From the NCBI GenBank assembly GCA_032718475.1, contig JAUCBJ010008887.1, positions 259 to 64,258 on the forward strand: a stretch of DNA of 64,000 nucleotides, given 5' to 3'. Origin of the DNA: Nemertoderma westbladi (lineage: Eukaryota; Animalia; Xenacoelomorpha). The position numbers were made by a program, and so were the translations under genes. Below, one piece after another: positions 7,421 to 62,774 of this stretch. Numbering within the stretch: position 1 is the stretch's first letter; the number at the start of each line of letters is the position of its first letter. The notes below the pieces were generated by a model. That model worked only from the letters and a program-made list of their open reading frames with translations. It had not been told where the DNA came from and ran no database searches.

Positions 7421-8100
7421 GACTTCAATGTGGTACGCCTGGAAGGCGCCACGTGGGACGTACGAACTATTAAGTACAAACTCAAACTGATGCAAATAAT
7501 TAAATAAGTGCAATTATATGTATGTACGTAGTAATCAGTAGTTTAGTCAAAAAAAAAAATATACGTTCGAAGTAAGTACTATAGTCACTCAACCTTTCTC
7601 AATTAGCTACTGGGACTGGGGGGCAAACTGACTATGGTACTATGGACGAGACACCAGACGACTTCACATTTCTTGAGTGCAACGGCACAAAGGGGGGTGA
7701 GACTCGTCAGATGAGATAGGGTAGTCAAAGAGAGACGGAGCAACAGTGCGAAGTGCGGAGAGAGTGCGGATGCAATTCTAGTGTGGGGGGGGAGGAATAA
7801 GAGGCTGAGTGAGGGATGAGGAGGTCCGAGGGTGTGCGAGAGTTAGGGTGAGAGTTGAGAAGAGATAGGGCGAAAGTGTTGGGGAAACAAAAGTCGTGTG
7901 AGAGGTGAGCGGATCGGCCCGACATGGGACGCCAGGCATACAGGGTAGCGTTATCATACCCATAGGGAGCGGCCTGGAAAGCCGGCTCCGAGAGAAAAGC
8001 ATTCCACCCCACACCCGATACTAGATCGGGATCCAGCGGGATTGTAGCGCACTTTGAGGTGGATGCTATCTTCTCACCGGGAAGATAGCATGGGGGGGAG

Positions 8101-8644
8101 TGTTAGCTTATTCAATCCCGCGAACCCAAACCCATAAAGTAAGCCGATAAGCAATATTGGGGGCCACGAAATTGGGTAATCAATCACTCGTGTCACCCCA
8201 ACAAAATGGGAAGGAGAAACACACAATGAGGGTCAGGGGCCAAACCCCTAACAGAGAGAGAATAGGTGGAGTGAACGGGAACACTCCAAATGGCGCCAAC
8301 AAGGGTATCAACCAATCAGAGGGGGGAAAGGCATCGGCTAGGTAGAGTAACAAGGCCAACCCGTGCAATATAACTGGTTGGCAGTAATCATTTCATTCAG
8401 TTATCTCAGTGTTAGTTATTGGTGTTACTGTAGTTTACAACATTTAGCTAGGGAAGTACCGGGACTTCAATTACCGTATCCCGCTTTCCATGTACAACAA
8501 CATTATTATTATATCATATCTATATCTATATACCCAAGTATTATACACATCGAACAACCGAAACTCTTTTACTCTTCACACACGGCGGGGACGCGTGAAC
8601 TGACAAAACCGGATAAATCAGGATCCTATCTGGATCCCGTCACA
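8101..8644 (+). repeat. 3' LTR of element B (TGTTAGC...GTCACA, 544 bp)
   Basis: Follows the PPT and is highly similar to 62227-62774 and to the inverted copy at 46685-47224. It contains CCAAT, TATA-like (CAATATAAC) and Inr-like (TCAGTT) motifs. Confidence 0.93.
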
Positions 8645-8645
8645 C

Positions 8646-9566
8646 AATTTACTATTTACAACATACGAAACTAAAAATGGGCTACTGGGTGCGGGTGGTT
8701 TTCATCAACCTTTATCTGAACACGGAAATGAAATTGACCCAGGCGCGCATCCTATTGGCAATGCCTTTAGTAAACAAATGCAATTTGTAAGTGGATTGAC
8801 GATTGATTTTGATTCTGAAAGTAAAATAATACAACCCGGGTATGATTTAAGAATGCATTTTAGAAAAGTATCAAATTCGTTTATTTTTAAAATCACTCCA
8901 AACGCAAACGCTGTGACAAATCTTCGGTTAGAATTAGATGAAGTAAAGATCCTAATCCCTAGAATGGAGGTTAATCCCATAATAGAAAGCAGTCACCTAA
9001 AAGGTTTAGAGAGTTACGATATTGAATATCAATTCCAAAAAAAGGAGGTTACAACATTTACTATTCCCGCTCAAACCACAAATTACACCCAAACAAACAT
9101 ATTTGATGGTAAAAAACCCAAATTAGTTATTATCGGTTTTATAACAAATAATGCATATTCGGGAGAATTAATTAGCAATCCCTTGAAATTTGAACATTTT
9201 AACCTTAGACGCGCGGAACTGATTGTAGACGGTCTTCCAGTAGGTGGTGTAATATACGAGCCTAATTTTACAGATGGAACATACATTTTTGAGTATACTC
9301 AATTAATGAAAAACATTAATACATATATTAACGGTTATGGAGGTAATAATATAGACCATGAAACCTACTTAGGTAATTGCCCGCTCATATCTTGGGACCT
9401 AACCGCCGACGGCTATGTTAGAGATCCGCAACCATCGATATATACTAACGGCCAATTAAAATTAAGATTTGCCGAACCGTTGATTGAGACCATAAATGTA
9501 ATCGTTTTTAATATTTATGATCAATCATTAAGTTTAAATAGCAGGAAAGAAATACATATCGATTAA
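8646..9566 (+). pseudogene. Polinton double jelly-roll major capsid protein, C-terminal part (N-terminus cut off by the LTR insertion)
   Basis: The frame is open from 8646 (NLLFTTYETKNGLLGAGGF) into ORF 8778-9566. Motifs resemble Polinton MCP: IFDGKKPKLVIIGF, AYSG....NPLKFEHFNL, L.VDG, WDLT, G.LKLRFAEPL....VIV. Confidence 0.82.
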
Positions 9567-9568
9567 GT

Positions 9569-10027
9569 ATGTTATCTACAGAGGACCTTGATATGTTTCC
9601 AGTGGGTGGTCACTATTTGGGAGCGTTTCCATCTAACAAATTACCTAAATTAGATAATAATAATAAACGGAGGAGAGATTATGGGTTAATAGTAAACACC
9701 GATAAACAGCATCTGCCCGGGGTTCATTGGATCGCTATATATATACGAGATAATGAGGCTGAATTATTTAATTCATTCGGACCAAAATATCCAAACAGAT
9801 GTATCGAAAAATGGCTTGAGAAAAATTCAGCGAGGTGGCGTACTACCCGGAAACAATTTCAAGACCCCAGGAGGACCACATGTGGATTATACTGTCTTTA
9901 TTACTTGGTAAATCGAATTCACACAAACTATCCAATGAGAGCGTTTACAAATAATGTGGAAATAAATGAAATAATATTATATAAATGGCTTGTTAATTAT
10001 TATAAAATAAACCAACAAGCGTTGTAA
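9569..10027 (+). CDS. Adenain-like cysteine maturation protease
   Basis: YLGAFP, IVNTD....PGVHWIAIY, F.SFG and Q....TTCGLYC, the His/Gln/Cys layout of adenoviral and Polinton proteases. Confidence 0.9.
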   Translation: MLSTEDLDMFPVGGHYLGAFPSNKLPKLDNNNKRRRDYGLIVNTDKQHLPGVHWIAIYIRDNEAELFNSFGPKYPNRCIEKWLEKNSARWRTTRKQFQDPRRTTCGLYCLYYLVNRIHTNYPMRAFTNNVEINEIILYKWLVNYYKINQQAL

Positions 10028-10058
10028 TTAATCATTTAACTTTTGTTTATCAGATAAA

Positions 10059-10667
10059 ATGGATAATATTATTTTTGTTGATTTTCAATATTATAAGATA
10101 GACAATAAGGAATATCCAGTAGCATTTAAAGAATTTGCTATATTCGATTCTAATTACACCAAAACTAATGTAAAGACGTTTTTAATTAAAGGTCCGCCTA
10201 ATATTAAGTTATCAGCAATAGATGTAGCTCACGTAAACAATTTACGAGACATGACTTCGCATTTACCTTGGGATTACGGTGACATTTCGCAAGATGACTT
10301 TAAAAAATACATGAAGAGACATTTAAAATATAAAAAAAATATACATGTATTTGGTTTGATGAAGCGGGCAATATTAGTTTCCCAACTTGATGTTCTCGCA
10401 CCAAATTCGATGGAGAAATTGTGGATATATCAATATCGGCAATATTACAATTATTTAACCCCCTGTCGCTTCCACGATCAATTTATTGCACTAGAAAATA
10501 AATGTGCATTCCACTTAAACACAAGGGATAACTGTCTGCAGTACTGCTCTGCTAAACGTGTCGGCGGGTTTGAATTGAAACGATTTTTCGTGAGAAAGCG
10601 TTTAACTGACACTGATGATGATAAACAGAAAGAAATAACTGCGGTGGAAGATGTACTCGTACAGTAG
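10059..10667 (+). CDS. Polinton-associated DEDD/DnaQ-like exonuclease-fold protein (divergent)
   Basis: N-terminal IIFVDFQ...FKEFA, a H.LPW..G motif, and a C-terminal C..H....CS Cys/His cluster. Confidence 0.5.
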   Translation: MDNIIFVDFQYYKIDNKEYPVAFKEFAIFDSNYTKTNVKTFLIKGPPNIKLSAIDVAHVNNLRDMTSHLPWDYGDISQDDFKKYMKRHLKYKKNIHVFGLMKRAILVSQLDVLAPNSMEKLWIYQYRQYYNYLTPCRFHDQFIALENKCAFHLNTRDNCLQYCSAKRVGGFELKRFFVRKRLTDTDDDKQKEITAVEDVLVQ

Positions 10668-11705
10668 GTTTACTCTAAGCATGTAATGTGATGGGATAAT
10701 ATAATTGTTTTAATGTCAATAAAAATAATTAAAACATTAAAATCTATTTTTTTTATATCTCAGTGACTGAAGGTGTAGGGCTTAAGTTTATACTCACAAA
10801 CACACCGTACCTACCAGTAGCCGGCTGTTGTATCAGAGTTGAACTACCAGTAGCTGACTTTACACACATACCGACATATACCAACAACGCTAAACTGTAG
10901 AACGGCAGAATGGCACCGACCGCAACCACAGCGCTTTAGCGTTACCGTACTTACTAATAATAAAATTAAATTAACTCGACATGGGGGTTCGTGAATACAG
11001 CATTAGAGGGACCCACCCAACAATAGGCCTACTGGTACCGACACTGTAGCACTCTTGTACCTGTATACTTGGATAGAGCAAGGGCATGCTGGTTTCTTCG
11101 ATTTAAGGATTAGGCTATTACACTTGAATGCTTCCAATTTTCTGTTTACAACTTTAATTGGTCTAATCTACATTACTGTGGGCTACTACTGTCGCATAGG
11201 CAAGCCTATACAGCTATAGTTAACTTTATGCGGCCCCCTTTTTCGAATGTTGACCCAATATGGTTTGCGGATAGGTAAGGTACACCTTCATTCGGTTAGG
11301 CATATAGGCCTAATGACTACTCCTCAACTGAAAGCTGACTAGCTCATGGACACAATAGGTGTAGTTAGGTACCGGTAGCGCTATTGGACCTATAAAATCC
11401 CCTCGCACTCTCTGTTACTAACTTTCAACATTCACTTTATGACAGTATGTTGTATGCTATACCGTTAACCTTTAGAACACACAGTCGGGAACCCCTCATT
11501 CAACCAGTCATATAAAGGCTCCACTCGGATACAATAGGTGAGGCTCGCCGTATACCTAACTAAGCCTATATAAAATCCACCACATTCTCTGTTACTAACA
11601 TTCACTCTATGTTGACGGGACTATATAAAACATAGTTAGTTTATTTATGTATTCGCTTTTTTTAAATTAGATATAAAATAGGTTCGACCTACTAAGTTTT
11701 ATAAG

Positions 11706-12037
<332 letters not shown>

Positions 12038-12064
12038 CTAAATTTATTACCATATTATACTTTT

Positions 12065-12715
12065 TTATATACCTATATGAGGATCCCTCAGAGGTGTTTC
12101 CCCCTTTACCGGTACCTGTAAATGGTTGTTTGAGGAGTTTATAGGCCTAACTTCTACCGGTCTTTGCATCGGTAGATCGAAGCTGTTTGAGGAGTTTATA
12201 GGCCTAACTTCTACCGGTCTTTGCATCGGTAGATCGAAGCTGTTTGAGGAGTTTATAGGCCTAACTTCTACCGGTCTTTGCATCGGTAGATCGAAGCGAA
12301 GCGTATTATCAACATCATTCTCCCAATTCTCCGAATTTTCACTAGAGGGTGAGCTTCCTGGTATTTGAGGTTGTATCCTTATATTGAGGGTGAAATCTTT
12401 AGAAATTTCAACCTTTGTTGGTGATAAAGGTAGACCTACTCCATATTCTACCGAAGTAAACCCGATCTCAAATTTTTGGTTTATATATCGCAACTCCATC
12501 TCGGCAATATTGGATGCTGAGAGATATGTTTCGTCGCTTGATTGCAAATCGATTTTGATACAACTTTTCAACCCTTGGTTATTAAAAAAGGCGAATGTCA
12601 TCTTCCTTCGAGGTAAGTTGTCGTCGTCGTAACTACCGGTAAGAATATCTTTAAATTGAATAGGTAGGCCTACTGGTATTTTTTTCTTCTTTTGTTTAAC
12701 AAAATTATAGTTCAC
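12065..12715 (-). CDS. Polinton hypothetical protein (probably a 3' exon) with three 57-bp tandem repeats (FDLPMQRPVEVRPINSSNS)
   Basis: Open frame of 216 codons with in-frame repeats at ~12127-12297. It starts at an acceptor-like TTTTCTACCAG rather than an ATG. Confidence 0.5.
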   Translation of the reverse strand: MNYNFVKQKKKKIPVGLPIQFKDILTGSYDDDNLPRRKMTFAFFNNQGLKSCIKIDLQSSDETYLSASNIAEMELRYINQKFEIGFTSVEYGVGLPLSPTKVEISKDFTLNIRIQPQIPGSSPSSENSENWENDVDNTLRFDLPMQRPVEVRPINSSNSFDLPMQRPVEVRPINSSNSFDLPMQRPVEVRPINSSNNHLQVPVKGETPLRDPHIGI

Positions 12716-13287
12716 TGGTAGAAAAATTGAGTTTATATATATTTTTGTAGAGGGTCGCAGATGTGTACATTACAAAATTCTCATAGTTAACAAAATGCAC
12801 AACATAAACCTTTCCCATGCGGATTAGCGATATATGCTCTGTTCATTGTTCTATTCTGAATGTAGGGAGATGCATAGCCGATGTTTTAATGATATGTACC
12901 GGTATACAGACTAGTAACAGATAGGAGGGCATCGTCTTTGACTATGAATACCAGCACATAGCCCTAATCTTTTCTCACTGAGCTTAGCGTTGTCTGCTGC
13001 ACACACACGCACACTCATAAGTAACAGATGCGCTATTGTAGCTCACTCGTGAGCAGCGATGCTTAGTTAGCTAGCTAGCTAGCTACGGCCACGGAGTATA
13101 CTATGCCTACTTGAGTGTTACAAGCAATCGCTCTACTGAAGTTAGTTAGTTAATTTCCCCTCAAACTAGTTGTTGATTTTAAAAAAAATATTCATAAATT
13201 TTTTTTTCCAGCCAATTTAATATATATATATATTTTACAGTAAAAATCTCCACCACCAAACAGCAACAACAATAAATTTCACTCGCA

Positions 13288-13869
13288 CTAATTATATTTT
13301 ACAACAAAAACCCTCGCACCAAACAATAATAAATTATTAACCAGTTTGTTGAATATAGGATAATATATATGAAATTTAAACGGGGAACATATTAATGTAC
13401 ATTTACCAGTGTAGAAGCAGCAAACAACAACATTATTATTTATTCTGACTTTACAGTTATTGAATATTTCGGGATCGTATGAAATTTCTAGTTTAACATT
13501 ATCAAATATAACATAAAACCCGATATTGTTTATAAGTAACCTATAAATTACGGTATCTATACTAAAAATATAAGTACACAAATTGATTGATTTAAAAATC
13601 AAATTAATGTTTGTTTTTTCGAATATATGCTTTTTCACTTTATTAAAATTATATTTTCTACCGAGAATAGTTATTCGACCATTTGTAAACATTAATATGG
13701 TTGCACCAAATACCTTATATATAAACTGATTAGGTTTGAGTACAATTTTACCAGTCAATTGATTTTTTAATTCTTTTAAATTAAGTCCATAAATGATCTG
13801 CTTACAACTTATATTTTTATTTACTATTTGATAATTCATCATCAACACCATCGTCTTTTGGTTCTTCAT
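13288..13869 (-). CDS. TATA-binding-protein-like protein (two TBP repeats)
   Basis: Repeat 1: YQIVN..LNLKEL..ATILMFTNGRITILG. Repeat 2: SINL..ISYDPEIF..VVCCFYTGKCTLI. These parallel TBP IFSSGKMVCTG, SYEPELF and IFVSGKVVLTG. The start overlaps the PolB 3' end. Confidence 0.78.
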   Translation of the reverse strand: MKNQKTMVLMMNYQIVNKNISCKQIIYGLNLKELKNQLTGKIVLKPNQFIYKVFGATILMFTNGRITILGRKYNFNKVKKHIFEKTNINLIFKSINLCTYIFSIDTVIYRLLINNIGFYVIFDNVKLEISYDPEIFNNCKVRINNNVVVCCFYTGKCTLICSPFKFHIYYPIFNKLVNNLLLFGARVFVVKYN

Positions 13870-16800
13870 AAATTGGTATATTTGATATTTTTACAGGTTT
13901 TTTGAGGTTTGTTTTATAGTGCCCCCAAGGAAGTGATTGATTTTTATTAACCCAATAAAGTTTATCATCAAAGCTACTGAGTGCAAATTTATTTTGCTTT
14001 AAGGTATAAATACGATGTAATTTAGATTGAAATCTGTGTATGTTTTTTTTTATTTCTTCATTTGAGTTATATGCTTTTAAATATTCTTCATGTGTAATAT
14101 TCGTTTCCACAACAGCTCTTGTAATACCTTTTGCTCTACGAATATTTTTGTTATTTCATTCCAAAATTGAATATAATTTTGGTCTTAAAAATACTGCTTG
14201 TTTAATTTCACGCGAGGCTAGTTCGTCTTTACAGTAATAGAGTCTGGATTTATTTTTATCGCTGTAGAGAGGGTGATCCTTAGGGTAATTGGAAGTATCT
14301 AAAATATTATTTTTAATTAATGCTTTTAAAAAATTATTCTGCAATGTATTATAGTAACAACCTATTAAAGAGTCGGTATCTGATGCAGCAATTTCAATAC
14401 GGCAGTTTAATTCTTTCTCAATAGGTAGCAATTTATTGTAGAACAGCTCATACATATCCAATTTAGCCAAGTCCAACACAGCGCTACCAATAAATATAGA
14501 CTTATCGAGAGTTACAGAGTCTTTTACTAATAAATGTCCCGATAATGTATTATTGTATATTATAAATTGTTCATAATTAATACGATTTACCAATTGATCG
14601 CATTTATCATTGCTATTTGCGATACGAAAGTTACATCGATCTCTTATCTTTTCTATTGATTTGCCAAATAACGAATTATTGAGCAATTTCGCGACAGCTG
14701 TTTCAATGTAACTTTTTGCTACTCGCCTTTGATTATATTAAAATCTATGTAATTTTTAAATACAAATTCTTGTTGAAAAGAATATAATTTATGTAGTTTA
14801 GTAACAATTAATCCATGTTTTATATAAAATTTTAACAGTTTCAAATGTAAATGATAAAACTCTTTATCAAATTGCGTCAGCAAGAGTTTTGCTGTAGGCA
14901 TCCTATATTTACGGGGGGTACCTCTTTGTATCGATAAGTTATTAAATTGTTCCCTCATATAAGGTGAAAGCATTGATTCATTTATACTTAAATGCTCTGG
15001 AGCTAACGGTAATTGTAATGTTTGATCGTGAATAGCTTTGGGATAATTTAAATCACATATTAAAAAATATCCAGTAGATTCATCAATGTCTAAATCTACC
15101 AAGTACTCGATTAGTTGTTCTGGAATAGCATTCTCTAAATGTTTAATACTTACTTCTTTGAATTGTGAGGTGGGTAGTTTTTTACTTAAATTCCCAGAAT
15201 ATAAAGAGTTGAAATCAATATTAAAAATATGGCATTCTTCCTTAGTAGAATCATATGTACTTGTTCCTGGTATATTTGATTCTATATAATGCTTTCGACA
15301 AAATGAAACACCACCCCTAATTGATTTTTCAAAATCTCTATATGTCTGATAATCCTTTATTAATTCTATTTTACATTTATTATATTTTAGTGCGCAATCA
15401 TAGGTAAATGACGCGATACTACAGTAAAAAACCACTTCTAAATCGTAATTTTGTTTATAAACATTCCTAAAATTCTCAAATATATCAGCAAGCAAACAAA
15501 CATCGAGTTTTAAATAGGCTAAAAGATAATCTTTGAGATTCACGCAGTCGAATTCTATCCATGATAATTCCGCAAACCTATAATCTTCAATTGTGCATGT
15601 TTTTTGACTTAAGTTACTAAAAAAATTATTTATAGATGGCAAACCTGTATCATTAAATTTATTTATATCTGTCAAGTACTCGTATGGAAATACTCCTTTC
15701 CGTTTAATTGTTGAGTTATTCAAGTTTGGATAAAAATATTTCATTTCTTGTAGAGTAATAGGTAAAATTGAGCTTATATCATGACTCGCTACATCCTTTG
15801 TTGAACACTCAACTAAATTACTTAAAGAAAAGCTTAAAAATTGATATGTGTCTAAGAAACGTAACTCAATTTTTTTAGAAGTGTTTTTAATTGGGATAAA
15901 TGCACTCAGTGAAATATATCGTTCTGTATTTCTCGGTGTAACCTTTATATCCCAATCTGTGTATTTCTTATCTCTAAATCCGGTTTGTAATATACAATGT
16001 ATATCGTAGTTGTTGGAATTGTGCCCGCAAAGTACATACAGGTTTCGTTTCAATGATAAACTTCGGTTACAACTATTACAGGCTGCCGCAATATATTTAC
16101 CAGTAATATGTGAATGATGTCTGTTTTTCCCTACATTATTATTTAAAGTAACATTACAATAGAAACAAAATTTTGCTTGTTCAAAATTTACAAAATCAAT
16201 ATTAGTAAATGACATAGTTTTATGAGTGTATATGTCTGACCAACAACATAATTCAGTTAAATCAGTATATAATGAATCTAAGAAATCTTGAATACAATTA
16301 TTATTATTTGTCTTTACAAATGTTTTCAAATGACATTTTGGAGCGTCAAGTAATTCACTATTGGGAACAATTAAATAACTCACCGCACACGGTATATGCT
16401 CCTGTATAAATTGATTATTAATTGAAGGTTGTAAGATACATTCTATATCAAAGTAGGTGACAAACAATGGGGATAAGGTTCTATCTAAATTTGTAAAACT
16501 AATGTGTGTTCTTTTTTTATTAGGTAGTTTCTCTCGTTGACTTCTTCCTTGGTAGCATGCGAGACGGTGTCGATGAAGAACTTCTGCTCGAAAAAAATGA
16601 GCCAAACACCTTTCACAAAATTGCCTACCACGGGTATGAAGAGCTCTCGTATTCAGCAATCGATTCAAGTTAGTTATGCAAACATAATGATTCAGTTTAG
16701 GTACATTGTTATTTTTTACTACAAGTAATATATTTAATAACTGTTTATCAGGTGTAATTTTACTAAATGGAGGTTGTCTTAATATAGATACAGGGGTGTG

Positions 16801-17874
16801 TTTGTTGTCGTTATTCCAACATAGTAAATTAATTATATATTTTGAATTTTGTTTTTCAAAAAGTTTAATCGCTAACTGCCACTCTGTTGGATAATTATTT
16901 TTCCCGTTGTCAAAAATGAAATGACTCATATAATTTTTGTACGACGAAGTACGCTGTTTGTTGTTTTTCACTTTGTTACTAAATTTTGCGGTTATAATAG
17001 CCCATTTGAAACAGTCATTATCAACCGATTGCATATTTATAACACATCGTTTACTCGATAGAACCTTAGGTAATTCCATATATCCATGCCCCTTATAAAG
17101 TAACGACCTACACTTAGATTCCGCTAATTTAATTTCAACCCTTAATAAAGATTTAATACGCCACCCGGAACCACGTGTGTTAAAGATGGCTATTTTTTGT
17201 AATATATTTTCCAGCACATACTCAAACCATGTGTCAAAACTTTGTGATGAATCTACAGTATTAATAGCACCACCGGAAGAATTAAAATAAAAGGTTTCCA
17301 ATTGCTCGCCTTCTGAAAAATATGATCTGTACATTAATACATTTAGACCTAACCACAGTCTAAGAACATTCATTTCTTTCAATCTGTCTAATATTAACTG
17401 AAGAATATTACCTCGAATTTGCGTTAATGCTGTTTCTACATCGGGATAATCTCTAGAAGTTGGGAGTTCGTGGACATAAATTTCAAGACGATTATCGTGA
17501 GCTTCTTGTTCCCGCGTAAAAATTGTTGCGCATGTACCAAGAGCCACCCTTAAGTTTTTTCTAGATAATATATTTTTATGTTGCGGAAATTTACGCTTTC
17601 TTGTGTAGTAACATTTCAAGTGACAGTCGTGTCGTAAATAATTCTCATATGTATACTCTTTATTACAGGTAGAACAAGTCAATTGATAGGTACGGAACTC
17701 CATTTCTTTACAACCAGTAGTTGATTCATGTCGTTTACAAATTTCGCTGCATGAAGTCACGACATGACACTTAAAACAAGAATAACCTTCAAAATGTGAC
17801 CGTAGGTGGCGTAAATAATTATGTCTAGTTACATTCATATGACAGAATGAACAACATATTGTTATTTTATCCAT
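13817..17874 (-). pseudogene. polB: Protein-primed family B DNA polymerase (Polinton pPolB) with N-terminal Zn fingers and an endonuclease VII-like insert; one frameshift and one stop
   Basis: Motifs YFDIE, HNSNNYD, FLDTYQF, RKGVFPYEY, YLKLDV.LLAD, IRGG, DFNSLY, KLLNNSLFGK, DTDS, RPKLY, AKG and ALSSFDDK. A missing A near 14729 shifts the frame, and there is an in-frame TGA at 14156-14158. Confidence 0.95.
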
Positions 17875-18077
17875 GCTGAAGTTTGTTTAGATAAATAATA
17901 ATAATAATAATAATAAAATATCTCCAAAGATTAAAATAAAATGAAATGAAATGATATTGACTATATCTAAATATTTATATGCTAGCGAGTGAAATAATTT
18001 TAAACCAATCACCAAATACCAATCACCAATCGTCTATGGGTATTGGAAACCTCAAAGAGTTTAACTTATGATCAGGT

Positions 18078-19135
18078 TTACATGTTAGGATAATAATCTG
18101 GTTTCCATGGAGAATTAGTAACTGGATCTACTGGAGCTGAGTTAACAGCAACTTTCTGTTTCTTTGCAGGTGATGCGTTGGTAAATTTACTCGATGATCT
18201 TGGCTTCCGAGGTAATATTTCAGGAAAGACCTGTTGCGGTTGAGAGCAACTCTCTTCAACATCCGGATTAGGTGATAGGATCTCTACGAATGCTTTAGGT
18301 TTATCCAAAAGGACAAAACCGTCTACATGGGCTTCAATAAGAGAAACACCATCCATAGCCTCTTTGAGAAAACTAATATGGGCTTTATCATTCAAGTAAT
18401 GCAACTCAATAGAATTTCCACCTGCTCCTACTTCAGTAGAATTATCAGTGTTGGTGATAATAATTTTTTTATTATTGGTTTTAATCATTTTGAGACGGTC
18501 TGATAATTGAATGATATTTTTATCAAAAAGATGCTTGTCTGGTTCATTGATTTGAGTGTCCCACTCTCGCAACAAAACGGTTAGTTCCAGATTTGACAAA
18601 TTGAAACCCATATTATAGTTAAAACCAACACTATCAGCGTATCTGAGGCTGATTTTCCATAAGCCAACATAGTTGGTTCCTTTAAAAGCTGTTACAAATC
18701 CGATAAACTCTGGATTTGATAATTCAATGTAGAATTGATCGCTAATAATCTCTAGCGGTGGTGAGAGAAATTGCAATAATTTCCCTCTGTATTGAATTAG
18801 AACTTCAGTAAAAGCTTTGTTGAGGACTTTACATTTGCCCTGTTTCTGAACGTAAACATCACCCGATGTGGGGTTGATAGAAATATTCAAATTTCCCCGC
18901 GCAAAACGAAGAGTGGGATATATCCTACCTGGTATAATTGCCGGTCTGGATTGATGTTGGTTGTTGTTTCTAGAATGTCTAGCAAATAGCGGGTATCTTG
19001 ATAGGAAAAACAAATTGATTCGTTGTCCTCCTGAGATTCCACAATAAAATACTTGCTGTGAACGGCGGTACAAGTATATTTATTGTAAGTAAATTTCCAG
19101 CTATTTGTTGCCCCGGTTTTTTGCGTTAAGGCCAT
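18078..19135 (-). pseudogene. Polinton protein with a PC4/Sub1-like ssDNA-binding domain; probable frameshift near 18900
   Basis: The ATG ORF 18887-19135 overlaps the non-ATG ORF 18078-19073. FVTAFKGTNYVGLW...GFNLSNLELTVL resembles PC4 (V..FKG..Y.DIR...GISL...EW..L). The C-terminus has an NLS-like PAKKQK. Confidence 0.5.
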
Positions 19136-19334
19136 AACAATAATAAATACGAAAAATATTACAAGTGATAAATGTTAAAATTCACTCTAAAATTGTGTTT
19201 GGATGTAAGGAAGAATTTATAGTATCAATGAATGATAGTACTATAGACTGGTTTATCTAGTGTCACGCTTGCTGTCTTTCACTAATAAGCGTAACACTAG
19301 ATAAGCTAGTCTATATAGGTAGTACTATCATTCA

Positions 19335-21036
19335 ATGGTTGGAAAGCCCACTTTGAAAAGCTCCTCAATAATGACAGGGTATTGCCTGATAACTTTATAG
19401 AAGTAAAAGTGTCTGAGTCTGTACTCCCAGATATTCCCATTGGCGATATCTCCTTTGCAGAAGTGAAGACTGCTGCAAAGAGCATTAAGACCAATCGTGC
19501 CAGTGGAGTAGATGGTGTTCCCCCTGAGGTCTTTAAAATACCTGAGTGTTTAAAGCTCATCTATCCCATCATAGTAGACATGTACCGAACAACAAGAGTC
19601 CCACAAGAAATGAAAACGAATAAGTTGGTGCCAGTTCCCAAGAAGGGCAACCTAACACTCTATGGTTCTTTTCGTGGAATCTCATTGATCTCGATTGCTG
19701 CAAAACTATACAATAGAATTCTATTAAATCGCATCAGGGATCCCATTGAGAGACTGCTACGTGGAAATCAGAATGGGTTCCGTAAAGGTCGTGGGACCAT
19801 GGAGCCCATTTTGGCACTTAGAAGGATAATTGAAGAGTTATCAAAAAAGAAAGACAGGCATCTGGCTGTTATCTTTGTTGACTTCTTCAAGGCCTTTGAT
19901 TCAGTCTCTCGCTCACGTATGTTCAGCATACTTTCATTATATGGGATTCCTGATGAAATTATTGCAGCAATCAGATCAGTATACGATGGTTCGACAACAT
20001 TTGTGTCTACTGTTGACGGTGACACAGAACCATTTGAAGTGTTATGGGGCGTCCTCCAAGGAGACACACTTGCACCATTCTTGTTCATTATTGTGGTTGA
20101 CTATGTTCTACGCATGTCCTTAGATCATCATAATGATGATGGGGTGATAATAACTCCACCTACTGGCTCCAGAAGTCGAGGAAATCCTGCCAAGTACCTA
20201 ACTGATCTAGACTTTGCTGATGACTTAGGAGTACTCTCAGAATCATTAGAGGGAGCCCAGCGGCTCCTCAGCTCATTAGAACATGCTGCTTCTAGTGTTG
20301 GTCTTTTTATTAACTCCAGAAAGACCAAAATTCTGACAGTTAACTTTGAAAGTCCTCAGCAAGTCTCTGATCGGATGAGCATAAGCTCAAAGGATGGTAT
20401 GCTTGAGCATGTGGACGACTTCTGTTACCTGGGATCATGGATCCGGAAGTCAGGTGAGGACCTTCGAATACGTAAGGGAAAGGCATGGGCAGCCTTGAAT
20501 AGGCTTTCCAGGTTTTGGAAGTCACCTAGAATTAATCGGAAACTTAAGGTCCGATTATTTAGAGCAGCAGTAGTTCCAGTACTCCTCTACGGGAGTCCAT
20601 GCTGGGCTCTAACTGCTGAGGACACCAAATCTCTGGATGGCACATTCACAAGAATGCTACGCCGGGTACATTGTGTCAAGTACAATGCACACATCTCCAA
20701 CCAGACACTATATAACATTGGAGGTGTCTCATTGGTTCCCCCAAGCTTGACACTAGAACAAAATCGCCTCCGCTTTGCAGGACATTGCTTTCGCCGTGAG
20801 GACCAGCCAGTGCATAATCTTGTACTTTGGCAGCCTCATGGCGTGAATAAGCATGGTGGACAGCCCATGACTTTCTTGAGACGCATCTTAAAGGACACTG
20901 GCCTTAAAGATGCGGATGATCTAGCAAATGTCATGGGTGATAGGGAGTTGTGGCGGTGCAATTTTGTTGAAAAGCCAGCACAGCATTCTTAAAAATGCAG
21001 CTGCAATGCAGCATGCCGATCCTAGTAGTAGTAGTA
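19335..21036 (+). mobile_element. 5'-truncated RTE-like non-LTR retrotransposon with a (TAG)n tail
   Basis: Target site duplication GTAGTACTATCATTCA at 19319-19334 and 21037-21052, a short 3' UTR and a TAG-repeat tail. Confidence 0.92.
19382..20992 (+). CDS. LINE reverse transcriptase domain (endonuclease part missing)
   Basis: PVPKKG, RGISL, QNGFR, DFFKAFDS, GVLQGD.LAP.LF, FADD, YLGS, and an RTE-like C-terminus (RLRFAGHCFR). Confidence 0.93.
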   Translation: MPDNFIEVKVSESVLPDIPIGDISFAEVKTAAKSIKTNRASGVDGVPPEVFKIPECLKLIYPIIVDMYRTTRVPQEMKTNKLVPVPKKGNLTLYGSFRGISLISIAAKLYNRILLNRIRDPIERLLRGNQNGFRKGRGTMEPILALRRIIEELSKKKDRHLAVIFVDFFKAFDSVSRSRMFSILSLYGIPDEIIAAIRSVYDGSTTFVSTVDGDTEPFEVLWGVLQGDTLAPFLFIIVVDYVLRMSLDHHNDDGVIITPPTGSRSRGNPAKYLTDLDFADDLGVLSESLEGAQRLLSSLEHAASSVGLFINSRKTKILTVNFESPQQVSDRMSISSKDGMLEHVDDFCYLGSWIRKSGEDLRIRKGKAWAALNRLSRFWKSPRINRKLKVRLFRAAVVPVLLYGSPCWALTAEDTKSLDGTFTRMLRRVHCVKYNAHISNQTLYNIGGVSLVPPSLTLEQNRLRFAGHCFRREDQPVHNLVLWQPHGVNKHGGQPMTFLRRILKDTGLKDADDLANVMGDRELWRCNFVEKPAQHS

Positions 21037-21529
21037 GTAGTACTATCATTCATCGATACTAAAAATTCTCCCCCACATCCAAACGAGATTTCCTTTGAGT
21101 TACATAATTACGTTTAGAAACCCAATGTGGGAATCAGTATCATTTATTCGAGTGTTTCCGACCAATGAATATACAACGAGTAAGATAATGTAGAAATTAT
21201 TAAGGAAATGACACAATTTCAGAGTGAGAACAAAAAATTAGATATGGTATCAATATATTACCATGAAGATTACAAGTGATGAATTTTAAATAAAAACATT
21301 CAGTTATATATAAATTTTTGAATACATGATTGTAGATGCGGCATAATCAACGTAGAAGAGATGGGATGTGGCATAATCGACGAATAAGAAAAGAGATGGG
21401 TTGCAATGTGGATGAATGGTTGCGTGGATAGGAAATATGTGAAAGAATATGAATCATTGGGTTGTGCGTAATAATAATCAATAATTATAATAAAAACGCA
21501 CAGTATAATGTTAGTAGTAGCCTTTCAAT

Positions 21530-22003
21530 ATGGCACAGATGCTGAGGGATCGGTTAGCTTGAGTAACTACTATGGAAATGCTCGTATACGTGTAGTTGAC
21601 GCGTGGCGGAATTTCATGTATCATACTGGTTGGTTGGTTGGTTTGGCGACAGCAGTCGAGGAGTTGGCAATCGATATAATATAATATATGCGCGATGCGT
21701 GTAGATGGCCACGTCGTCACTATATACAGTATACAGTGGTGGTGGTAACGTGGCGAAAAGGTGAATAACATTAGGGTTAGTTAGTTAGTCAGTCAGTCAG
21801 TCAGTAGTCGAGTAAGGCAAGGCGGACATCGCGAGGTTAGGCTACGCTACGATTGGATGATGGCAACTGCCGATCGATGGTGACATATGGCGCGCACCGC
21901 AATTTAGCACCGGAATTTGGCATTTTTAATAGCCCTCCGAATGGAATGCCCATAGCCCAAGCTAGGGAGGAGTTACGTCGAGGGCCATGCTTCTCCTACT
22001 ACT
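21530..22003. repeat. Candidate right terminal inverted repeat of the Polinton
   Basis: A GC-richer non-coding block with short microsatellites, ending in CTACTACT (the AGTAGT-type Polinton terminus). The partner TIR is not visible and the inner boundary is approximate. Confidence 0.5.
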
Positions 22004-22607
22004 AGTACATACTGTACTCTATGTGTATCGCTATCAATCGTGTTTCTAGAATATAATCGCAATACACTGATATTATCATAAATGCGTTTAAATCCGATGT
22101 GAAATAATTTCAGGATTAAAAAACTGTGGAGATGGTTTAAGCATTTTACAGAAAGAATAAAGTCCAAAACTTGTAGCCCTAATAACATTCGTGAATACAG
22201 TAGGCCTAGACCTATAATCCAAGGAAGACGACCCCTACAGTGTCGCTATAAACGAATAAAAATAATCTTAAACAGTGAACATTACATTGTTGTGTCAAAC
22301 TAATAATATAAATATCTCAATCTTTATAACTAAAATTAGCCTACATCAAACAATAGTAAACTGTATGCTGTTACTGTAGCTAGTGAATGTTGTTAGCGTT
22401 GCCTAGCGATAAAGTGAAACAGAAAGTGGAACAGTAAATCAGAGCGTTTAAACTAAGATTTTCCCGCGATGGTGTATAAACCCCTCAATCTCAGCCGGAA
22501 CTCGATCAATTTAAAAACGAGATTCGTGATCAGCACACCTTTTTACATTTTATGAACGTGTTTATTGAAAATTTTTTTTGAGTCACAAACCCTATTAATC
22601 ATAAATT

Positions 22608-24395
22608 CTAAAAGAATAGTGACCCACAATCGCAATTTGAGAATTTAGCTATTTTATGAGCAATATAGCTTTCCATCGTTCCACACAACTGCCAAGAATT
22701 ATCCCCGAATTTCTTCACCTTATTTTGGTCCATGTCGCCATCGGATTGTCCCATGGCTATAATTTCCCCGAAACAAAGAACGATTCCTATACCATTACCA
22801 GGTGACGAATCAGCTCCTATCAGATTCCAGGTATTGTTTAGAGGATCATAGCACTCGACGCTCCTTAGTGTGACTGTAGTCATCGTGTTAAAGTTCATAT
22901 AGCCCCCTACTACGTATATATGGTTGTTATAAACTGCGCACCCAAAGGAATACCGCCTGATGTTCATTGCCGCCACCTCGGTCCATTTGTTGGTGTTTGG
23001 GTTGTACTTCTCGACAGAATTCATAACATTATTAGGAATTTGGTCGAGAATTCGGCCATTATACATATTCGGAAAAGATTCATTCATGCCACCGATAGCA
23101 TATAGAAATCCATCCAGAACGGCAACTGACAATCGTGATCGACGATACTTCATTGATGTAACCGGTGTCCAGTTGTCGGTGTTCGGGTCGTAATGCTCCA
23201 CGGTCTTGTAATATGTGAACCAACCTGCATCTCCCCCAACCACATAGAGCAACCCGTTCATCACAGCAACACCATGGAAACGACGAGGTGTGCTCATGGG
23301 AGCAATGTCATACCAATGGTCGACTTTTGGATCATAACACTCACCGATGGTCTCCATGGATTTCTTGTTATCGCCTCCAGTCGCATACAAAAATCCATTG
23401 AGAACAGCAACTCCCACGTGAAATCTGGGCCAATTCATTTGTTTAATCCCTCGCCACTCATTAGTATCTGGTATGTATTGTTCTACCGAGTAATAGAGAA
23501 GCCGATTGAAGCCGGAAGGAAGGAATATTTGAGTCCGACCAAAAGCCACCAAACGTGCACATGGTTGGGGATTCCGAGGATGGATCCCTTCCGAGAATGT
23601 CTTGGCATCTTCTACCAGTTTCAGACACTCATTGTCATTACAAATCAGGGGGTGGGTCTTTACCGTTCCCTCTAGGAATGCGAATCCAATTAACGGCAAA
23701 CGAATGAGTTTGAGCAACTCGGAAAGTAATGGAAAAGGTTCCTCATTGTCATTGACGTTATGCTCAATCCATTCCTTACTGCTCGCAACCCATTTCATTA
23801 CAGCAGTGAACAGCTGCTCCTCAGAACTAACATTCAGCTCGTCACTTCTAATTATCTCCTTCAGCTTATTAATCGACAATAAAAGAAACTCGTCATTCTG
23901 TATAACATTATGGAAGTGGTGTATCATGTAGTTTTTGGCATCACGCAAAATGTCCAGAAATGAATAAGTTTCCGCAAACGATTGGAAACCAATACAATTA
24001 CTCGCGTCCAGGTTGTTCTTCAGGAATTCGCAGCACCTTCGCTGCACCTCTTTCACCTGGAGCATAGTCGCAGCAGCCGCCAGTTCCTGCACATTTCCCT
24101 CATTAACCGTTATTAAGGATGTGTATGCGAAGTTAATGACCTGTTCAACAGCGTCTGCGTCTATATCTACGTTTTTACTTTCGATTTTCACCACAGGTTG
24201 TTCAGTTTCTTTCCATTCTCGAGTGAGCATGGCTTCGAAGTAAGGAGTCAACGCCACCAAGAGACGTCTGTGCGCGGTGATTTCCTTTTCGCCTACATCT
24301 ATTCGTATGTCACAGGGTTCGTTTACCAATTCACTCCTAATGTCGGATAAGGTAGGATCACCCGTGTTATGTCCTGGCTCTGATGTTGAAGACAT
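22608..24395 (-). CDS. Intronless BTB-BACK-Kelch protein (KLHL20/diablo-like Cullin3 adaptor family)
   Basis: BTB (CDI..AHR.LL..PYF.AM), BACK (NC..F, L.V.SEE.LF.AV.KW) and Kelch repeats (GVAVLNGFLYATGG, VE.YDP..W). A TATA-like CATATAAAAG lies ~155 bp upstream and an AATAAA ~40 bp downstream. Confidence 0.92.
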   Translation of the reverse strand: MSSTSEPGHNTGDPTLSDIRSELVNEPCDIRIDVGEKEITAHRRLLVALTPYFEAMLTREWKETEQPVVKIESKNVDIDADAVEQVINFAYTSLITVNEGNVQELAAAATMLQVKEVQRRCCEFLKNNLDASNCIGFQSFAETYSFLDILRDAKNYMIHHFHNVIQNDEFLLLSINKLKEIIRSDELNVSSEEQLFTAVMKWVASSKEWIEHNVNDNEEPFPLLSELLKLIRLPLIGFAFLEGTVKTHPLICNDNECLKLVEDAKTFSEGIHPRNPQPCARLVAFGRTQIFLPSGFNRLLYYSVEQYIPDTNEWRGIKQMNWPRFHVGVAVLNGFLYATGGDNKKSMETIGECYDPKVDHWYDIAPMSTPRRFHGVAVMNGLLYVVGGDAGWFTYYKTVEHYDPNTDNWTPVTSMKYRRSRLSVAVLDGFLYAIGGMNESFPNMYNGRILDQIPNNVMNSVEKYNPNTNKWTEVAAMNIRRYSFGCAVYNNHIYVVGGYMNFNTMTTVTLRSVECYDPLNNTWNLIGADSSPGNGIGIVLCFGEIIAMGQSDGDMDQNKVKKFGDNSWQLCGTMESYIAHKIAKFSNCDCGSLFF

Positions 24396-24695
24396 TGCCT
24401 CTTCACAAACTTCTTACACAGTGATGCTGTTACTGCAGCTGTACTGGTATGACCATATGAGTCGCCACATTCAAATAATCCCCCTCTCACACTATATTAA
24501 ACTAAGACTTTGTAATATTGATTAAATGAAAAAAGAGTTTTTCATTTACCTTTTATATGGAAAATCAATTTTTAAAAACAATAAAAAAATATATGATATT
24601 AATTTGAGGAAGAGTTCCATATTCCTCAGCACATAAAACTAAACTTAGTGTATTTATTTGTGCCATTTAGAAAAATAATAGGTAAAACAGATTCC

Positions 24696-25168
24696 GAGTC
24701 AATGGATACATCGTGTCAAAGAGTACAACAGGTCAAAGAGTACAAAAATGGAAAAAAGGGTACAACAGGTCAAAGTTTACAACAGCCATGTCAAAGGGTA
24801 CAAAAACCACGTTAGAGGGTACAAATGTTATAGAAAGGGTACAACATGACAAAGTGAACAACAGGGATTTTTATACTGTATGAAACTCGCTGGTTACAGT
24901 AGTGGCGGACCTCACCTGACCTAACCAATCCTGACTAATCCTAACCAAAATAATTAACGAACGAAATAACTGCCTTACACTTTGACTCGATGTACCCTTT
25001 GATGTTGTACACTTTGACTCGTTTTGTTTGTACCCTTCGAGGTCCTGTTTTGTACCCTTTGACCGCCTGGTTTGTACCCTTTGTCTCGTACCCTTTCCTG
25101 TTGTACCCTTTGACTCGTTTTATTCCCTTTGACTCGTTGTACCCATTGACCTGTGTACCCATTGACCT
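24696..25168. mobile_element. Small fold-back/MITE-like element with inverted arrays of AAAGGGTACAA subrepeats
   Basis: The left half has (TC)AAAG(A/G)GTACAA repeats, the right half has TTGTACCCTTTGA repeats, and the centre is CCTAAC-rich. Confidence 0.65.
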
Positions 25169-25185
25169 AAAGCGGGTAATACATC

Positions 25186-26104
25186 GGTACTAGTGAGTTA
25201 TAGGTACACCCCCCCCCCCCCTCAATTTTTTTTACTAGCTAGTTTTTGCTATTTCTTTTTATGAAATGTTCTAGAACATGAGATACATTTGAAAAAAAAA
25301 AAAAATGTTCTAGAACAAATATTTTTTGTTCTGGAACAAATTTTAAAAAAAGCTTACAAATTTTATTTTTTGTTAGTAATATTTTATTTGATGTCAAGGA
25401 AATTGAATTTTCTCGAATATTCGAATTTCTACAGCTAAGATTTGACTTTCGCCCAACAACTAGCTGAGTTTCGTTGGAAGCTTCTACACAAATAATACCC
25501 ATTCCTTGCTCTGTTGGATTTGATCAGAAAATATTACCCGCTGTCTGCTAAATAATAAATATTATACAGTATAGGTATTCTAAGCATATCATTAATTTCT
25601 GAATATAATGACCTCAATACAGTGAATTTATTAATTTTAATTAGCTATTAAAAAAATACTAGCTAACCCATCTCCCCCAAACCCATCTTGCCAGCAATGA
25701 TTAAAAATTATATGAAACAAATTCTGAATAAAATTAAAAAAAAAATTTCATATTTTTTGAACTGTTCTAGAACAAAAACTATTTGTTCTAGAACTTTTTT
25801 GTTTCTAGTTCTGAATAGCTAACATGTTCTAGAACATTATTAAAAAATAAAAATAGTACATTAATTTTTTTAATTTTTTTTAATTGTTCTAGAACAAAAA
25901 ATATTTTTTTATAGAACATATATATATTTTTTTTAATAGCTATCATGTGCTAGAACATGTTCATAAAAAGAAATAGCAAAAACTAGATAGAAAAAAATTT
26001 GAGAGGGGGTGTACCATGATCTACTACCATGTACCATGACCTACTATAGAATGTACTATAGAATCTATAGCAGGTCATGGGTGTACCTATAACACACTAG
26101 TGCC
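25186..26104. mobile_element. AT-rich MITE with long imperfect TIRs (GGTACTAGTGAGTTATAGGTACACC...)
   Basis: The ends are reverse complements over ~100 bp, with internal GTTCTAGAAC and TAGCTA motifs. A ~96-bp tandem duplication covers the right end. Confidence 0.65.
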
Positions 26105-46400: not shown

Positions 46401-47656
46401 TAGAATTAGAAGTGAGTTAAAATAACAATAGAAAGCTTACCACAGTGAATAGCATGCCTAATAAATAGCATCTTGATAGTATCTAAGGATACATAATAAT
46501 AACGTGGCATTCTGGAAGGCATCTGCCTAACGGACAAATGGCCCTAATTTGTACAAATTGTGGCAGGAATGTGGAATTTGTGTATTTATAGGTGAATGTT
46601 ACTACTAAAGTGTGTTTACAGTAGCGAGCCGCAATTGTGAAAGTTATCCTACATCTGTATCAAGTACCTCCAGGATATTCGAGCTGTGACGGGATCCAGG
46701 AAGGATCCAGATTTATCCGTTTGTCAGTTCACGCGTCCCCGCCGTGTGTGAAAGATAAAGAGTTTCTGTTGTTCGTTGTATTGCAATGTTCGAGGTATAT
46801 ACAATATAGATATAGATAATGATGACTGGTAATATTGTTGTACACGGAAGGCGGGAGACGGTAACTGAAATCCCGGTACTTCCCTAGCTAAACTATTCTT
46901 ACAGTAGTACCAATAACACTGAGATAACTGAGGTAATATGATTACTGGTTACTGGTTATATTGCACGGTGGCCTTATTGCTCTACTCAATCGGTGCCTTC
47001 CCCCCTCCGATTGGTTGATACCCTTGTTGGCGCCCTTTGGAGTGTCCCGTTCACTCCACCTGTTCTCTCTTGGTTAGGGGTTTGGCCCCTGACCCTTATT
47101 GTGTGGTTCACCTTCCCATTTTGTTGGGGTGGCGCGAGTTGGTTGATTGCCCAATCTCGAGGCCCCCAATATTGCTTATCGGCTTAACTTTTATGGGGTG
47201 TTAGCGGGATTGGATAAGCTAACACTCCCCCCCATGCTATCTTCCCGGTGAGAAGATAGCATCAACCGAAAAGTGCGCTACAATCCCGCTGGATCCCGAT
47301 CTAGCATCGGGTGTGGGGTGGAAATCTTTTCTCTCGGAGTCGGCTTTCCAGGAAGTCGGCTTTTCCTTTCTAGAATTAGAAGCAAGTTAAGAGAACAATA
47401 GAAAGCTTGTCCCATTGCATAGCATAGAGAATACATAGCACACTGTTAGTATCCAAGGATACACAGTAATAACGTGACATTCTGGAATGCACTGACTAAC
47501 GGACAAATGGCCTGTATGTGTACAATTGGTGACAGTTGTGTGGAATTTGTGCGTTTATAGGTGAATGTTACTGCTAAAGTATGTTTACAGTAGCTAGTCG
47601 CAATTGTAAAAGTAGCCCAACTCTCCTATAGAAAGAACCTCAAGTGGATCCAAGCC
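46401..47656 (+). repeat. Diverged ~280-bp direct repeats (46401-46684 and 47371-47656) in the pol-to-extra-ORF spacer; a second ~160-bp repeat pair lies at ~45797 and ~45959
   Basis: Both copies begin TAGAATTAGAAG and share AATAACGTG.CATTCTGGAA, CTAACGGACAAATGG and TTTATAGGTGAATGTTACT. Confidence 0.8.
46685..47352 (-). mobile_element. Inverted truncated 3' fragment of family BD (3' UTR, PPT and LTR 46685-47224) inside element C
   Basis: The reverse complement matches ~7972-8644, including the hairpin and PPT. Confidence 0.92.
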
Positions 47657-52197: not shown

Positions 52198-53204
52198 TAA
52201 GTGGTGTCATTAAGTGACACCTCTCCCCTTTTATTTATTGGTATTGATTTATTGGTATTTATTTTTATTTAAATAATTGTATTCATTTTACTTTATTTAA
52301 TTGTATTACTTTATTTAATTTATAAATTGATTTCTAATATTAGAATTATCAATAACTCGTTTTATTTATCAATACTTCCTGTCTACCTTATAATCCATTG
52401 GACAAGTTTCAGCTCGCTCCCCATATCTCGCCCTAGGGTATACAGGTCCTTGACTAGTGACTATTGAAGTTAATGTTAGCGAGGGGATTAACTTAAAGCA
52501 TAAAGTTGCATGCAAGCTATCGTCTAGGTTACACATGAATGAACAATTTACAAGGCCGGCCATTTATAGATTCTTTGCTGCTGTGTCAGGATTGGCTATT
52601 TAAGGAGGCCTTTTGGGCCCCAACATTCCAAGTTACTATTAATTAGCCTTGACCAAGAAAACATCCCATTGATTCATTTTAAAGTTTACTGTTTAATTAA
52701 AGAAGGCCCTGTTTTAATACATAAGTTATATGGTATATTATCAATTTATTTAATTTGTTTTTTTTATTTACAGCCCTAATTGTTCTATTATTATTTATGT
52801 TTTATTATATTTGTCAATCTATAACTTGTTAATTTTTATTAATTTTCTATGCATTGAGGTTTTCGTGGGCGCGGTTTCCCTACTCTCGAAACGATCTAAC
52901 CTATAATTAATTACATAAGTCTGTTAGGCATGCTTAATTAACAAATCTCGTTTACCTTTTATCCGTAAAATCTATCAAGCTAAATTGCATACAATTTTTA
53001 TGGGGGGCGAGGTATGAGGCAAGATGTTTGAGACTTATTTAGGCACATTATTACACCATTTTGTACCCTCAATCTACCATTCACTCCCATTCAACCTTTC
53101 GTCCTATCTTTTACTAGACCTCAATGTTTGAAAATATAACCTCAGAATTCTTGTCTGAGGCAGCCCTAAGTCTCGGATTTAAGGCCAGAGGCAGCCCTAA
53201 AAGC

Positions 53205-56200: not shown

Positions 56201-57228
56201 CATTTGTAACCTCCTCACTCGTAACCTCCTCACTTGTAACCTCCTCACTTGTAGCCTCCTCACTTGTAGCCTCCTCACTCGTAACCTCCTCACTTGTAGC
56301 CTCCTCACTTGTAACCTCCTCACTTGTAACCTCCTCACTCGTAACATCCTCACTTGTAGCCTCCTCACTCGTAACCTCCTCACTTGTAGCCTCCTCACTT
56401 GTAACCTCCTCACTTGTATCCTCCTCATTTGTAACCTCCTCACTCGTAACCTCCTCACTTGTAACCTCCTCACTTGTAACCTCCTCACTCGTAACCTCCT
56501 CACTTGTAGCCTCCTCACTTGTAACCTCCTCACTTGTAACCTCCTCACTTGTAACCTCCTCACTCGTAACCTCCTCACTTGTAGCCTCCTCACTTGTAAC
56601 CTCCTCACTTGTATCCTCCTCATTTGTAACCTCCTCACTCGTAACCTCCTCACTTGTAACCTCCTCACTTGTAGCCTCCTCACTTGTAACCTCCTCACTT
56701 GTAACCTCCTCACTCGTAACATCCTCACTTGTAGCCTCCTCACTCGTAACCTCCTCACTTGTAGCCTCCTCACTTGTAACCTCCTCACTTGTATCCTCCT
56801 CATTTGTAACCTCCTCACTCGTAACCTCCTCACTTGTAACCTCCTCACTTGTAGCCTCCTCACTTGTAACCTCCTCACTCGTAACCTCCTCACTTGTAGC
56901 CTCCTCACTCGTAACCTCCTCACTTGTAGCCTCCTCACTTGTAACCTCCTCATTTGTAACCTCCTCACTCGTAACCTCCTCGCTTGTAACCTCCTCACTT
57001 GTAGCCTCCTCACTTGTAACCTCCTCACTTGTAACCTCCTCACTTGTAACCTCCACATTTCTAACCTCCTCACTTGTAGCCTCCTGACTTGTAACCTCCT
57101 CACTCGTAACCTCCTCACTCCTAACCTCCTCACTTGTAGCCTCCTCACTTGTAACCTCCTCCCTCACTTGTAACCTCCTCACTCGTAACCTCCTCACTTG
57201 TAACCCCCCTCACTTTAACCTCCTCACC
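53205..57228. repeat. 15-bp minisatellite (CCTCCTCACTTGTAA variants), ~4 kb, with higher-order repeats
   Basis: Continuous 15-mer array with recurring 19-bp variant units. Confidence 0.97.
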
Positions 57229-62226: not shown

Positions 62227-62774
62227 TGTTAGCTTATTCAATCCCGCTAACCCAAACCCATAAAGTAGGCCGATAAGCAATATTGGGGGCCACGAAATTG
62301 GGTAATCAATCACTCGTGTCACCCCAACAAAATGGGAAGGAGAAACACACAATGAGGGTCAGGGGCCAAACCCCTAACAGAGAGAGAATAGGTGGAGTGA
62401 ACGGGAACACTCCAAAGGGCGCCAACAAGGGTATCAACCAATCAGAGGGGGGAAAGGCATCGGCTAGGTACAGTAACAAGGCCAACCCGTGCAATATAAC
62501 CAGTTGGCAGTAATCATTTCATTCAGTTATCTCAGTGTTAGTTATTGGTGTTACAGTAGTAATAGTTTAGCTAGGGAAGTACCGGGACTTCAATTACCGT
62601 ATCCCGCCTTCCGTATACAACAACGTATTATCCCATTATCATATCTATATCTATATCTATATACCCAAATATTATATACGACGAACAACACAAACTCTTT
62701 TATCTTTCACACACGGCGGGGACGCGTGAACTGACAAACCGGATAAACCGGGATCCTATCTGGATCCCGTCACA
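62227..62774 (+). repeat. 5' LTR of element D
   Basis: TGTTAGC...GTCACA. The predicted left TSD is CGGTG (62222-62226). Confidence 0.93.

Follow-up and report, generated by a model that had tools for sequence, protein, structure and literature searches.

The window, the whole stretch of 64,000 nucleotides analysed here, contains only part of a Polinton-type element, in a decayed copy with retrotransposon sequences on either side and BEL/Pao and LINE elements around it; together with a nearby kelch gene, these elements suggest an animal host. On the forward strand, the element comprises (i) the 3' remnant of a presumed major capsid gene (8604-9566), (ii) an adenain-type (C5) protease (9569-10027; Pfam PF00770, E=1.3e-5, over the cut-off), and (iii) an open reading frame (ORF) of 202 aa (10059-10667). 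The reverse strand carries (i) an ORF of 178 aa with a short tandem repeat, downstream of the TBP gene, at which the read depth drops (12065-12601), (ii) an ORF of 193 aa for a divergent TBP homolog with two repeats (13288-13869), (iii) a broken gene for a protein-primed family B DNA polymerase (PolB; 13817-17874), and (iv) a coding region upstream of PolB that occupies two frames (18078-19135, comprising 18887-19135 and 18078-19079). A by-eye reading of the ORF upstream of PolB as PC4-like found no support.

The capsid remnant matches residues 163-423 of its counterpart in a related element, L036 (E=3e-34), and gives no Pfam match; the capsid label is putative, drawn from size and position. 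The 5' part of the gene is replaced by a dispersed repeat ending near 8600, one of three copies in the window (7973-8600, 46719-47352 and 62266-62739) that are probably retrotransposon LTRs. PolB changes frame near 14737 and runs into an in-frame stop at 14156-14158, so that it is broken into the segments 14719-17874, 14156-14737 and 13817-14155. Pfam assigned no family to the segment of 1051 aa; PolB has 325 relatives, many with PF03175, and PF02945 is likewise carried by relatives. A tblastn search of the window, in which insertions interrupt the copy, found neither the integrase nor the ATPase of the element, and no terminal inverted repeats fitting the element were found within 8500-26000, the ends perhaps lying outside or being lost.

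The TBP ORF is uninterrupted, and its Met1 lies 53 nt inside the final PolB segment, which stops at 13817, so that 53 nt at the TBP start are shared with the acidic C-terminal tail of PolB (13817-13869, reverse strand). The remaining early Met codons of the ORF (7, 10 and 11) also fall within the PolB tail. The initial annotation was therefore right to describe an intact ORF overlapping the PolB stop region. A TATAAAA sequence at 13912-13918 (reverse strand), 49 nt upstream of Met1 and within PolB codons, is a putative but weak promoter, about 0.9 TATAAAA-type matches being expected by chance over the eight upstream regions of the window. The analysis supports the proposal of that annotation that a Polinton-type element encodes a TBP homolog of its own.

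Several further features were observed in the window. A long (CAA)n tract (11703-12037) and an array of 57-nt tandem repeats (12100-12300) lie between the two convergent gene blocks; to the left of about 12570 (within 12100-12570), the summed depth of other copies drops more than tenfold in two runs, and a third run shows none at all, which means that the majority of copies depart there from the window copy. The interval 19190-21091 is bounded by 54-nt inverted arms (19190-19243 and 21038-21091) and holds a LINE-type ORF for reverse transcriptase (19319-20992), which has a (TAG)n tail, and a 29-bp hairpin at 19242-19315; such flanks are unusual for a LINE. An intronless gene of 595 aa with BTB-BACK-Kelch architecture (22608-24395, reverse strand) near the element is either a host retrogene or element cargo, and 53140-57058 holds an array of a 15-nt unit in at least 241 overlapping copies with strong G/C skew.

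Homology and residue pattern of the TBP ORF

Profile comparisons identify the ORF as a divergent TBP homolog, beyond chance. Pfam PF00352 matches it in two stretches (E=2.2e-6, 27.8 bits, cut-off 22.9), and both halves align to a canonical TBP profile, bearing out the two repeats of the initial annotation. The canonical profile scores 14.2 bits against the ORF, compared with 10.2 bits for the best control (947 scored of 1001 shuffled or reversed sequences). The profile check against TBP suggested by the same annotation also favours homology: hhalign gives E=3e-5, and a profile built only from the window protein and two Polinton relatives matched 35 PDB sequences at E<=0.01, comprising 34 named TBP or TBP fusions and one locus tag, with a best E of 7e-16. 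In the Atlas comparison, 29 of 30 matches fall in the TBP set (score 0.94), with a recognition value under the threshold; a single-repeat TBP profile gives a weak E=0.061. Structure prediction from the single sequence failed (pLDDT 34.6). A model based on an alignment of 36 sequences reached pLDDT 66, with TBP as its best Foldseek match (E=4e-9, TM 0.57), both results being partly circular given that canonical TBPs were in the input. Direct searches disclosed no close relatives of the ORF among PDB sequences, viral contigs or metagenome contigs, none of 99 candidates in a collection of 5.8 billion sequences, no match among 1.84 billion representatives, and none by exact look-up of the protein.

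The hallmark of the TBP family is the binding and bending of TATA DNA, which nucleates the pre-initiation complex, with four intercalating Phe and two central Asn at the DNA face. All motifs named beforehand are present in the ORF: IVN (15-17), MFTNG (60-64), PEIF (133-136) and CFYTGK (151-156). In a single alignment of the window protein, three related Polinton proteins (from L035, L036 and L083) and canonical TBPs, the best identity to a cellular TBP is at most 24% over aligned columns. The window protein retains, in yeast numbering, N69 (N17), F116 (F61), F190 (F136), F207 (F152) and R196 (R142), together with the acidic loop Y131-D132-P133-E134-I135-F136 (YDPEIF). The DNA face is changed: F99 is replaced by P46, T124 by L69, N159 by T99, G162 by F102, P191 by N137 and T215 by I160. 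The early claim of recognisable DNA-contacting Asn and Phe positions thus stands for three of the four intercalating Phe and one of the two central Asn, the rest being replaced. In addition, the first loop is four residues shorter, helix H2 is shortened, and the N-terminal extension is absent. The exchanges of Phe for Pro, Thr for Leu and Gly (G162) for an aromatic residue, as well as the shortened first loop, are common to the window, L035 and L036 proteins; L035 and L036 keep N159 and T215, which the window protein does not.

The C-lobe acidic pair, whose examination for TFIIB contacts had been proposed, is retained as D132/E134 in the window protein, E/E in L035 and L036, and N/E in L083. 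According to the available part of PMC7221094, two glutamates of the C-lobe loop are the TFIIB contacts, viral TBPs mostly vary at these glutamates and are accompanied by their own TFIIB, and viral TBPs generally lack the N-lobe regulator patch. The corresponding N-lobe surface of the window protein is shortened and unconserved. Pfam, which could miss a very divergent TFIIB, found no TFIIB match in the ORFs of the window element, in L036 (13 of 13 genes) or in L083 (12 ORFs), all three being incomplete (4.6 kb of the contig is missing in L036 and 1.5 kb in L083).

Related elements, selection and promoter boxes

A PolB alignment yielded 100 related loci, 20 viral and 80 from metagenomes (the best 80 of 537 confirmed, with 13 of 64 parts scanned), many of them fragments and only 43 with at least 1500 bases downstream of PolB. 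TBP is uncommon in this survey, which had been suggested at the outset: it occurs at 3 of the 100 loci, L035, L036 and L083 (Pfam E of 5e-13, 4e-12 and 7e-8), and none of 243 other ORFs of 125-300 aa at related loci matches TBP. The PolB tree (87 of 101 sequences) groups the window with L034-L038 and L064 in a seven-member clade (FastTree support 0.997), and L083 lies outside it. L035 and L036, whose contig names share one assembly prefix and which are therefore not independent samples, are the sole clade members with sufficient downstream DNA, and both encode TBP; L034 has other ORFs in its 759 bases downstream of PolB. L036 is near-complete, encodes integrase and ATPase, and provides the best match for the capsid remnant, the protease and the TBP of the window. 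A quick TBP tree, following the proposal of a phylogeny, groups the window protein with L035 and L036 on saturated branches (SH-aLRT 90, unstarred) and places L083 apart.

TBP lies downstream of PolB on the same strand in all four elements. The coupling to the polymerase gene claimed by the initial annotation holds for the window family, where the two genes overlap, but not for its relatives, in which two ORFs (L035 and L036) or several (L083) intervene. In L035 and L036, TBP overlaps the preceding ORF instead, and the recurrent feature, judging from these arrangements, is the overlap of TBP with an upstream gene rather than polymerase coupling. Two side observations concern other loci of the survey. 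L083 (8426-8914) carries a second type of Polinton TBP, shorter (162 aa), with a truncated first repeat and from another PolB lineage, whose cluster has 33 members, one of them found on 180 contigs; a TBP-negative relative, L041 (5447-6085), has a VLTF3-like transcription factor instead.

Variation among copies provides solid sequence support for purifying selection on the TBP ORF, the copy differences being mostly synonymous. The ORF region was matched in five public runs from four studies, none of them listed as RNA, and 589 contigs from one run cover 731 bases around it, pointing to many divergent copies. Among the differences listed, 29 lie within the ORF and 27 of these outside the PolB overlap, comprising 17 synonymous, 10 non-synonymous and no stop, with 21 at third positions. 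The synonymous share expected is 0.20-0.26 (p between 1e-6 and 7e-5; rough omega 0.14-0.21), differences being classed singly and non-independent, several from one sublineage. The sole indel listed within the ORF, of three bases, falls in the PolB overlap and preserves both frames.

Promoter motifs were counted in the interval between 70 and 10 nt ahead of each gene start. Among the 281 genes of 29 TBP-negative elements, TATAWAW precedes 74 against 15.1 expected and TTAAG 21 against 17.3; among the 36 genes of the four TBP-positive sequences, TATAWAW precedes 6 (1.7 expected) and TTAAG 11 (2.5 expected); a TAAGA box is not enriched in the latter set (2 of 36 genes, 2.3 expected). The box signal comes mostly from L036, which is also where the motif was first noticed. 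There, 7 of 13 genes have TTAAGC in the 100 nt before their start (7 of the 14 TTAAGC sites of L036), namely the ATPase, integrase and capsid genes, the two small genes between them, a gene resembling a minor capsid gene, and one ORF ahead of TBP (apart from ATPase and integrase, the gene names were assigned in this analysis). No TAAG occurs upstream of PolB or TBP in L036. Among the 5-mers upstream of its genes, TAAGC and TTAAG rank first (6 of 13 genes; 1 of 300 random draws as good, family-wise), and neither is in the top three 5-mers of any of 26 TBP-negative elements. Two TTAAGC sites upstream of an orthologous ORF in L035 and L036 do not align. The box precedes 3 of 13 genes in L083, which is not significant (family-wise 0.37), and in the window TTAAG precedes one of eight genes, the protease (0.5 expected), without enrichment; the stretches upstream of the capsid, ATPase and integrase genes are lost from the window. 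Since the 3' half of the box is read by the N-terminal TBP repeat, a box ending in GC, as in L036, would match a rewired first repeat. The window protein, with a second repeat more strongly altered than its L036 counterpart, may bind a site other than TTAAGC.

Proposed function and rival explanations

The reading to which we give somewhat better than even odds is that the TBP homolog serves as a private promoter factor using host TFIIB and Pol II. Host machinery would make the viral TBP early, perhaps via the weak upstream TATAAAA; the protein would recognise a variant box in front of the genes for virion, packaging and integrase functions, its conserved acidic loop would recruit host TFIIB and RNA polymerase II, and it would escape regulators that grip the N-lobe. 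We infer each of these steps, from early expression driven by a canonical TATA, through binding to DNA and to TFIIB, to the late-gene switch. Specific DNA binding by the window protein is not assured, with the second Asn and both Thr lost, and the promoter switch is plausible in general and unproven for the window copy. The broader proposal, held more tentatively and at somewhat less than an even chance, is an animal Polinton lineage with a one-protein late-gene switch, in which a captured TBP had its DNA face rewired together with a private core promoter and retained the TFIIB loop; the promoter would be TTAAGC in L036 and probably another sequence in the window family.

The initial annotation had offered both a redirection of host Pol II and a TBP decoy, and redirection appears the better supported because the TFIIB loop is retained, no TFIIB was found and L036 displays a variant box. 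As a decoy, the protein would sequester host TFIIB (or Brf) through the acidic loop and dampen host transcription or defence without promoters of its own; the TFIIB loop is indeed best preserved and the DNA-reading residues are eroded in the window protein, but the retention of three Phe, one Asn and the Arg of repeat 2, together with a gene-class-specific box in L036 that would go unexplained, makes this unlikely. Slightly less likely is a non-transcriptional DNA-bending protein working at the termini, alongside PolB in replication, or during packaging of the genome, as the constant placement downstream of PolB and the overlap in the window might suggest; such a protein would not need the TFIIB contact pair, 97 of the 100 related PolB loci (many of them fragments) are without TBP, and adjacency to PolB is not conserved.

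Ranking below the bending role, and likewise doubtful, is a general TBP substitute with relaxed specificity, one that would raise the output of every AT-rich promoter of the element and evade host regulators of TBP, with no distinct late box in the window family. The missing box enrichment in the window and L083 would agree with it, as would the altered N-lobe surface, a trait of viral TBPs generally (PMC7221094, available part), yet the L036 pattern is gene-class specific, and the changes common to the three proteins point to a newly acquired specificity, not to a lost one. Finally, a recently captured host TBP/TRF copy decaying as a passenger could explain the extreme divergence (best identity 24%, saturated branch), but is very improbable: the synonymous excess among copies largely refutes decay, no stop or frame-breaking indel is found among the listed differences, introns are absent, and homologs occupy the same relative place in related elements.

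We know of no established mechanism for the timing of Polinton virion genes. A TBP paired with a matching variant box opens this timing to direct tests that need no more than a single small protein and a reporter. If true, no viral pre-initiation system would be smaller than the one-protein late-gene switch, and nature would have provided a series of TBPs with altered specificity; a switch reserved for particle genes would also speak for a genuinely viral cycle rather than a life as a transposon alone. Few known proteins are as constrained as TBP, and natural variants under selection, in which the DNA face has changed and the TFIIB loop has stayed, would reveal the reach of specificity shifts and could furnish orthogonal promoter tools.

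Comparison with known systems

A TBP in a Polinton-type virus is not unreported. The Fig. 5 legend of PMC8502044, in the section on non-animal datasets, has TBP as a gene label in MELD viruses with an adintovirus-like PolB (Starrett et al. 2021); like the window element, these are midsize viruses with such a PolB and a TBP-like gene, but the available text gives the label alone, without residue, selection or promoter analysis, and the available part of the supplement holds no TBP match. Among open texts on Polinton/Maverick and TBP (preprint supplements and subscription papers excluded), no paper characterises a Polinton TBP, only PMC8502044 and its preprint being relevant, and a word search of the available parts of recent papers on Polintons and small DNA viruses found no TBP.

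With cellular TBP (PF00352), the window protein shares the two repeats, three of the four Phe, the first Asn and the acidic TFIIB loop, and it differs in the replacement of the first intercalating Phe, the second Asn and both Thr and in the shortening of loop 1 and H2. Nucleocytoviruses with a TBP nearly always encode an RNA polymerase as well. Their TBP shares with the window protein the two lobes and the unconserved N-lobe regulator surface; according to the available part of PMC7221094, nucleocytoviruses nearly always encode TFIIB and vary at the acidic pair, whereas the Polinton TBPs keep the pair and no TFIIB was found with them. In beta- and gammaherpesviruses, TBP-fold proteins (EBV BcRF1, KSHV ORF24 and HCMV UL87) steer host Pol II to late genes, the TBP mimic acting within a six-protein viral complex on TATT boxes (PMC4893493, available part). 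None of the partner families of that complex was found among the ORFs scanned, and the L036 box is TTAAGC, not TATT; the herpesvirus protein is a model of how such a factor may work, and the window protein, a minimal two-repeat form that keeps the cellular TFIIB loop, is not a member of that system. Viral TBPs are already known, and to these the present sequences add a gene and a signature of selection that are solid and a promoter switch that is plausible.
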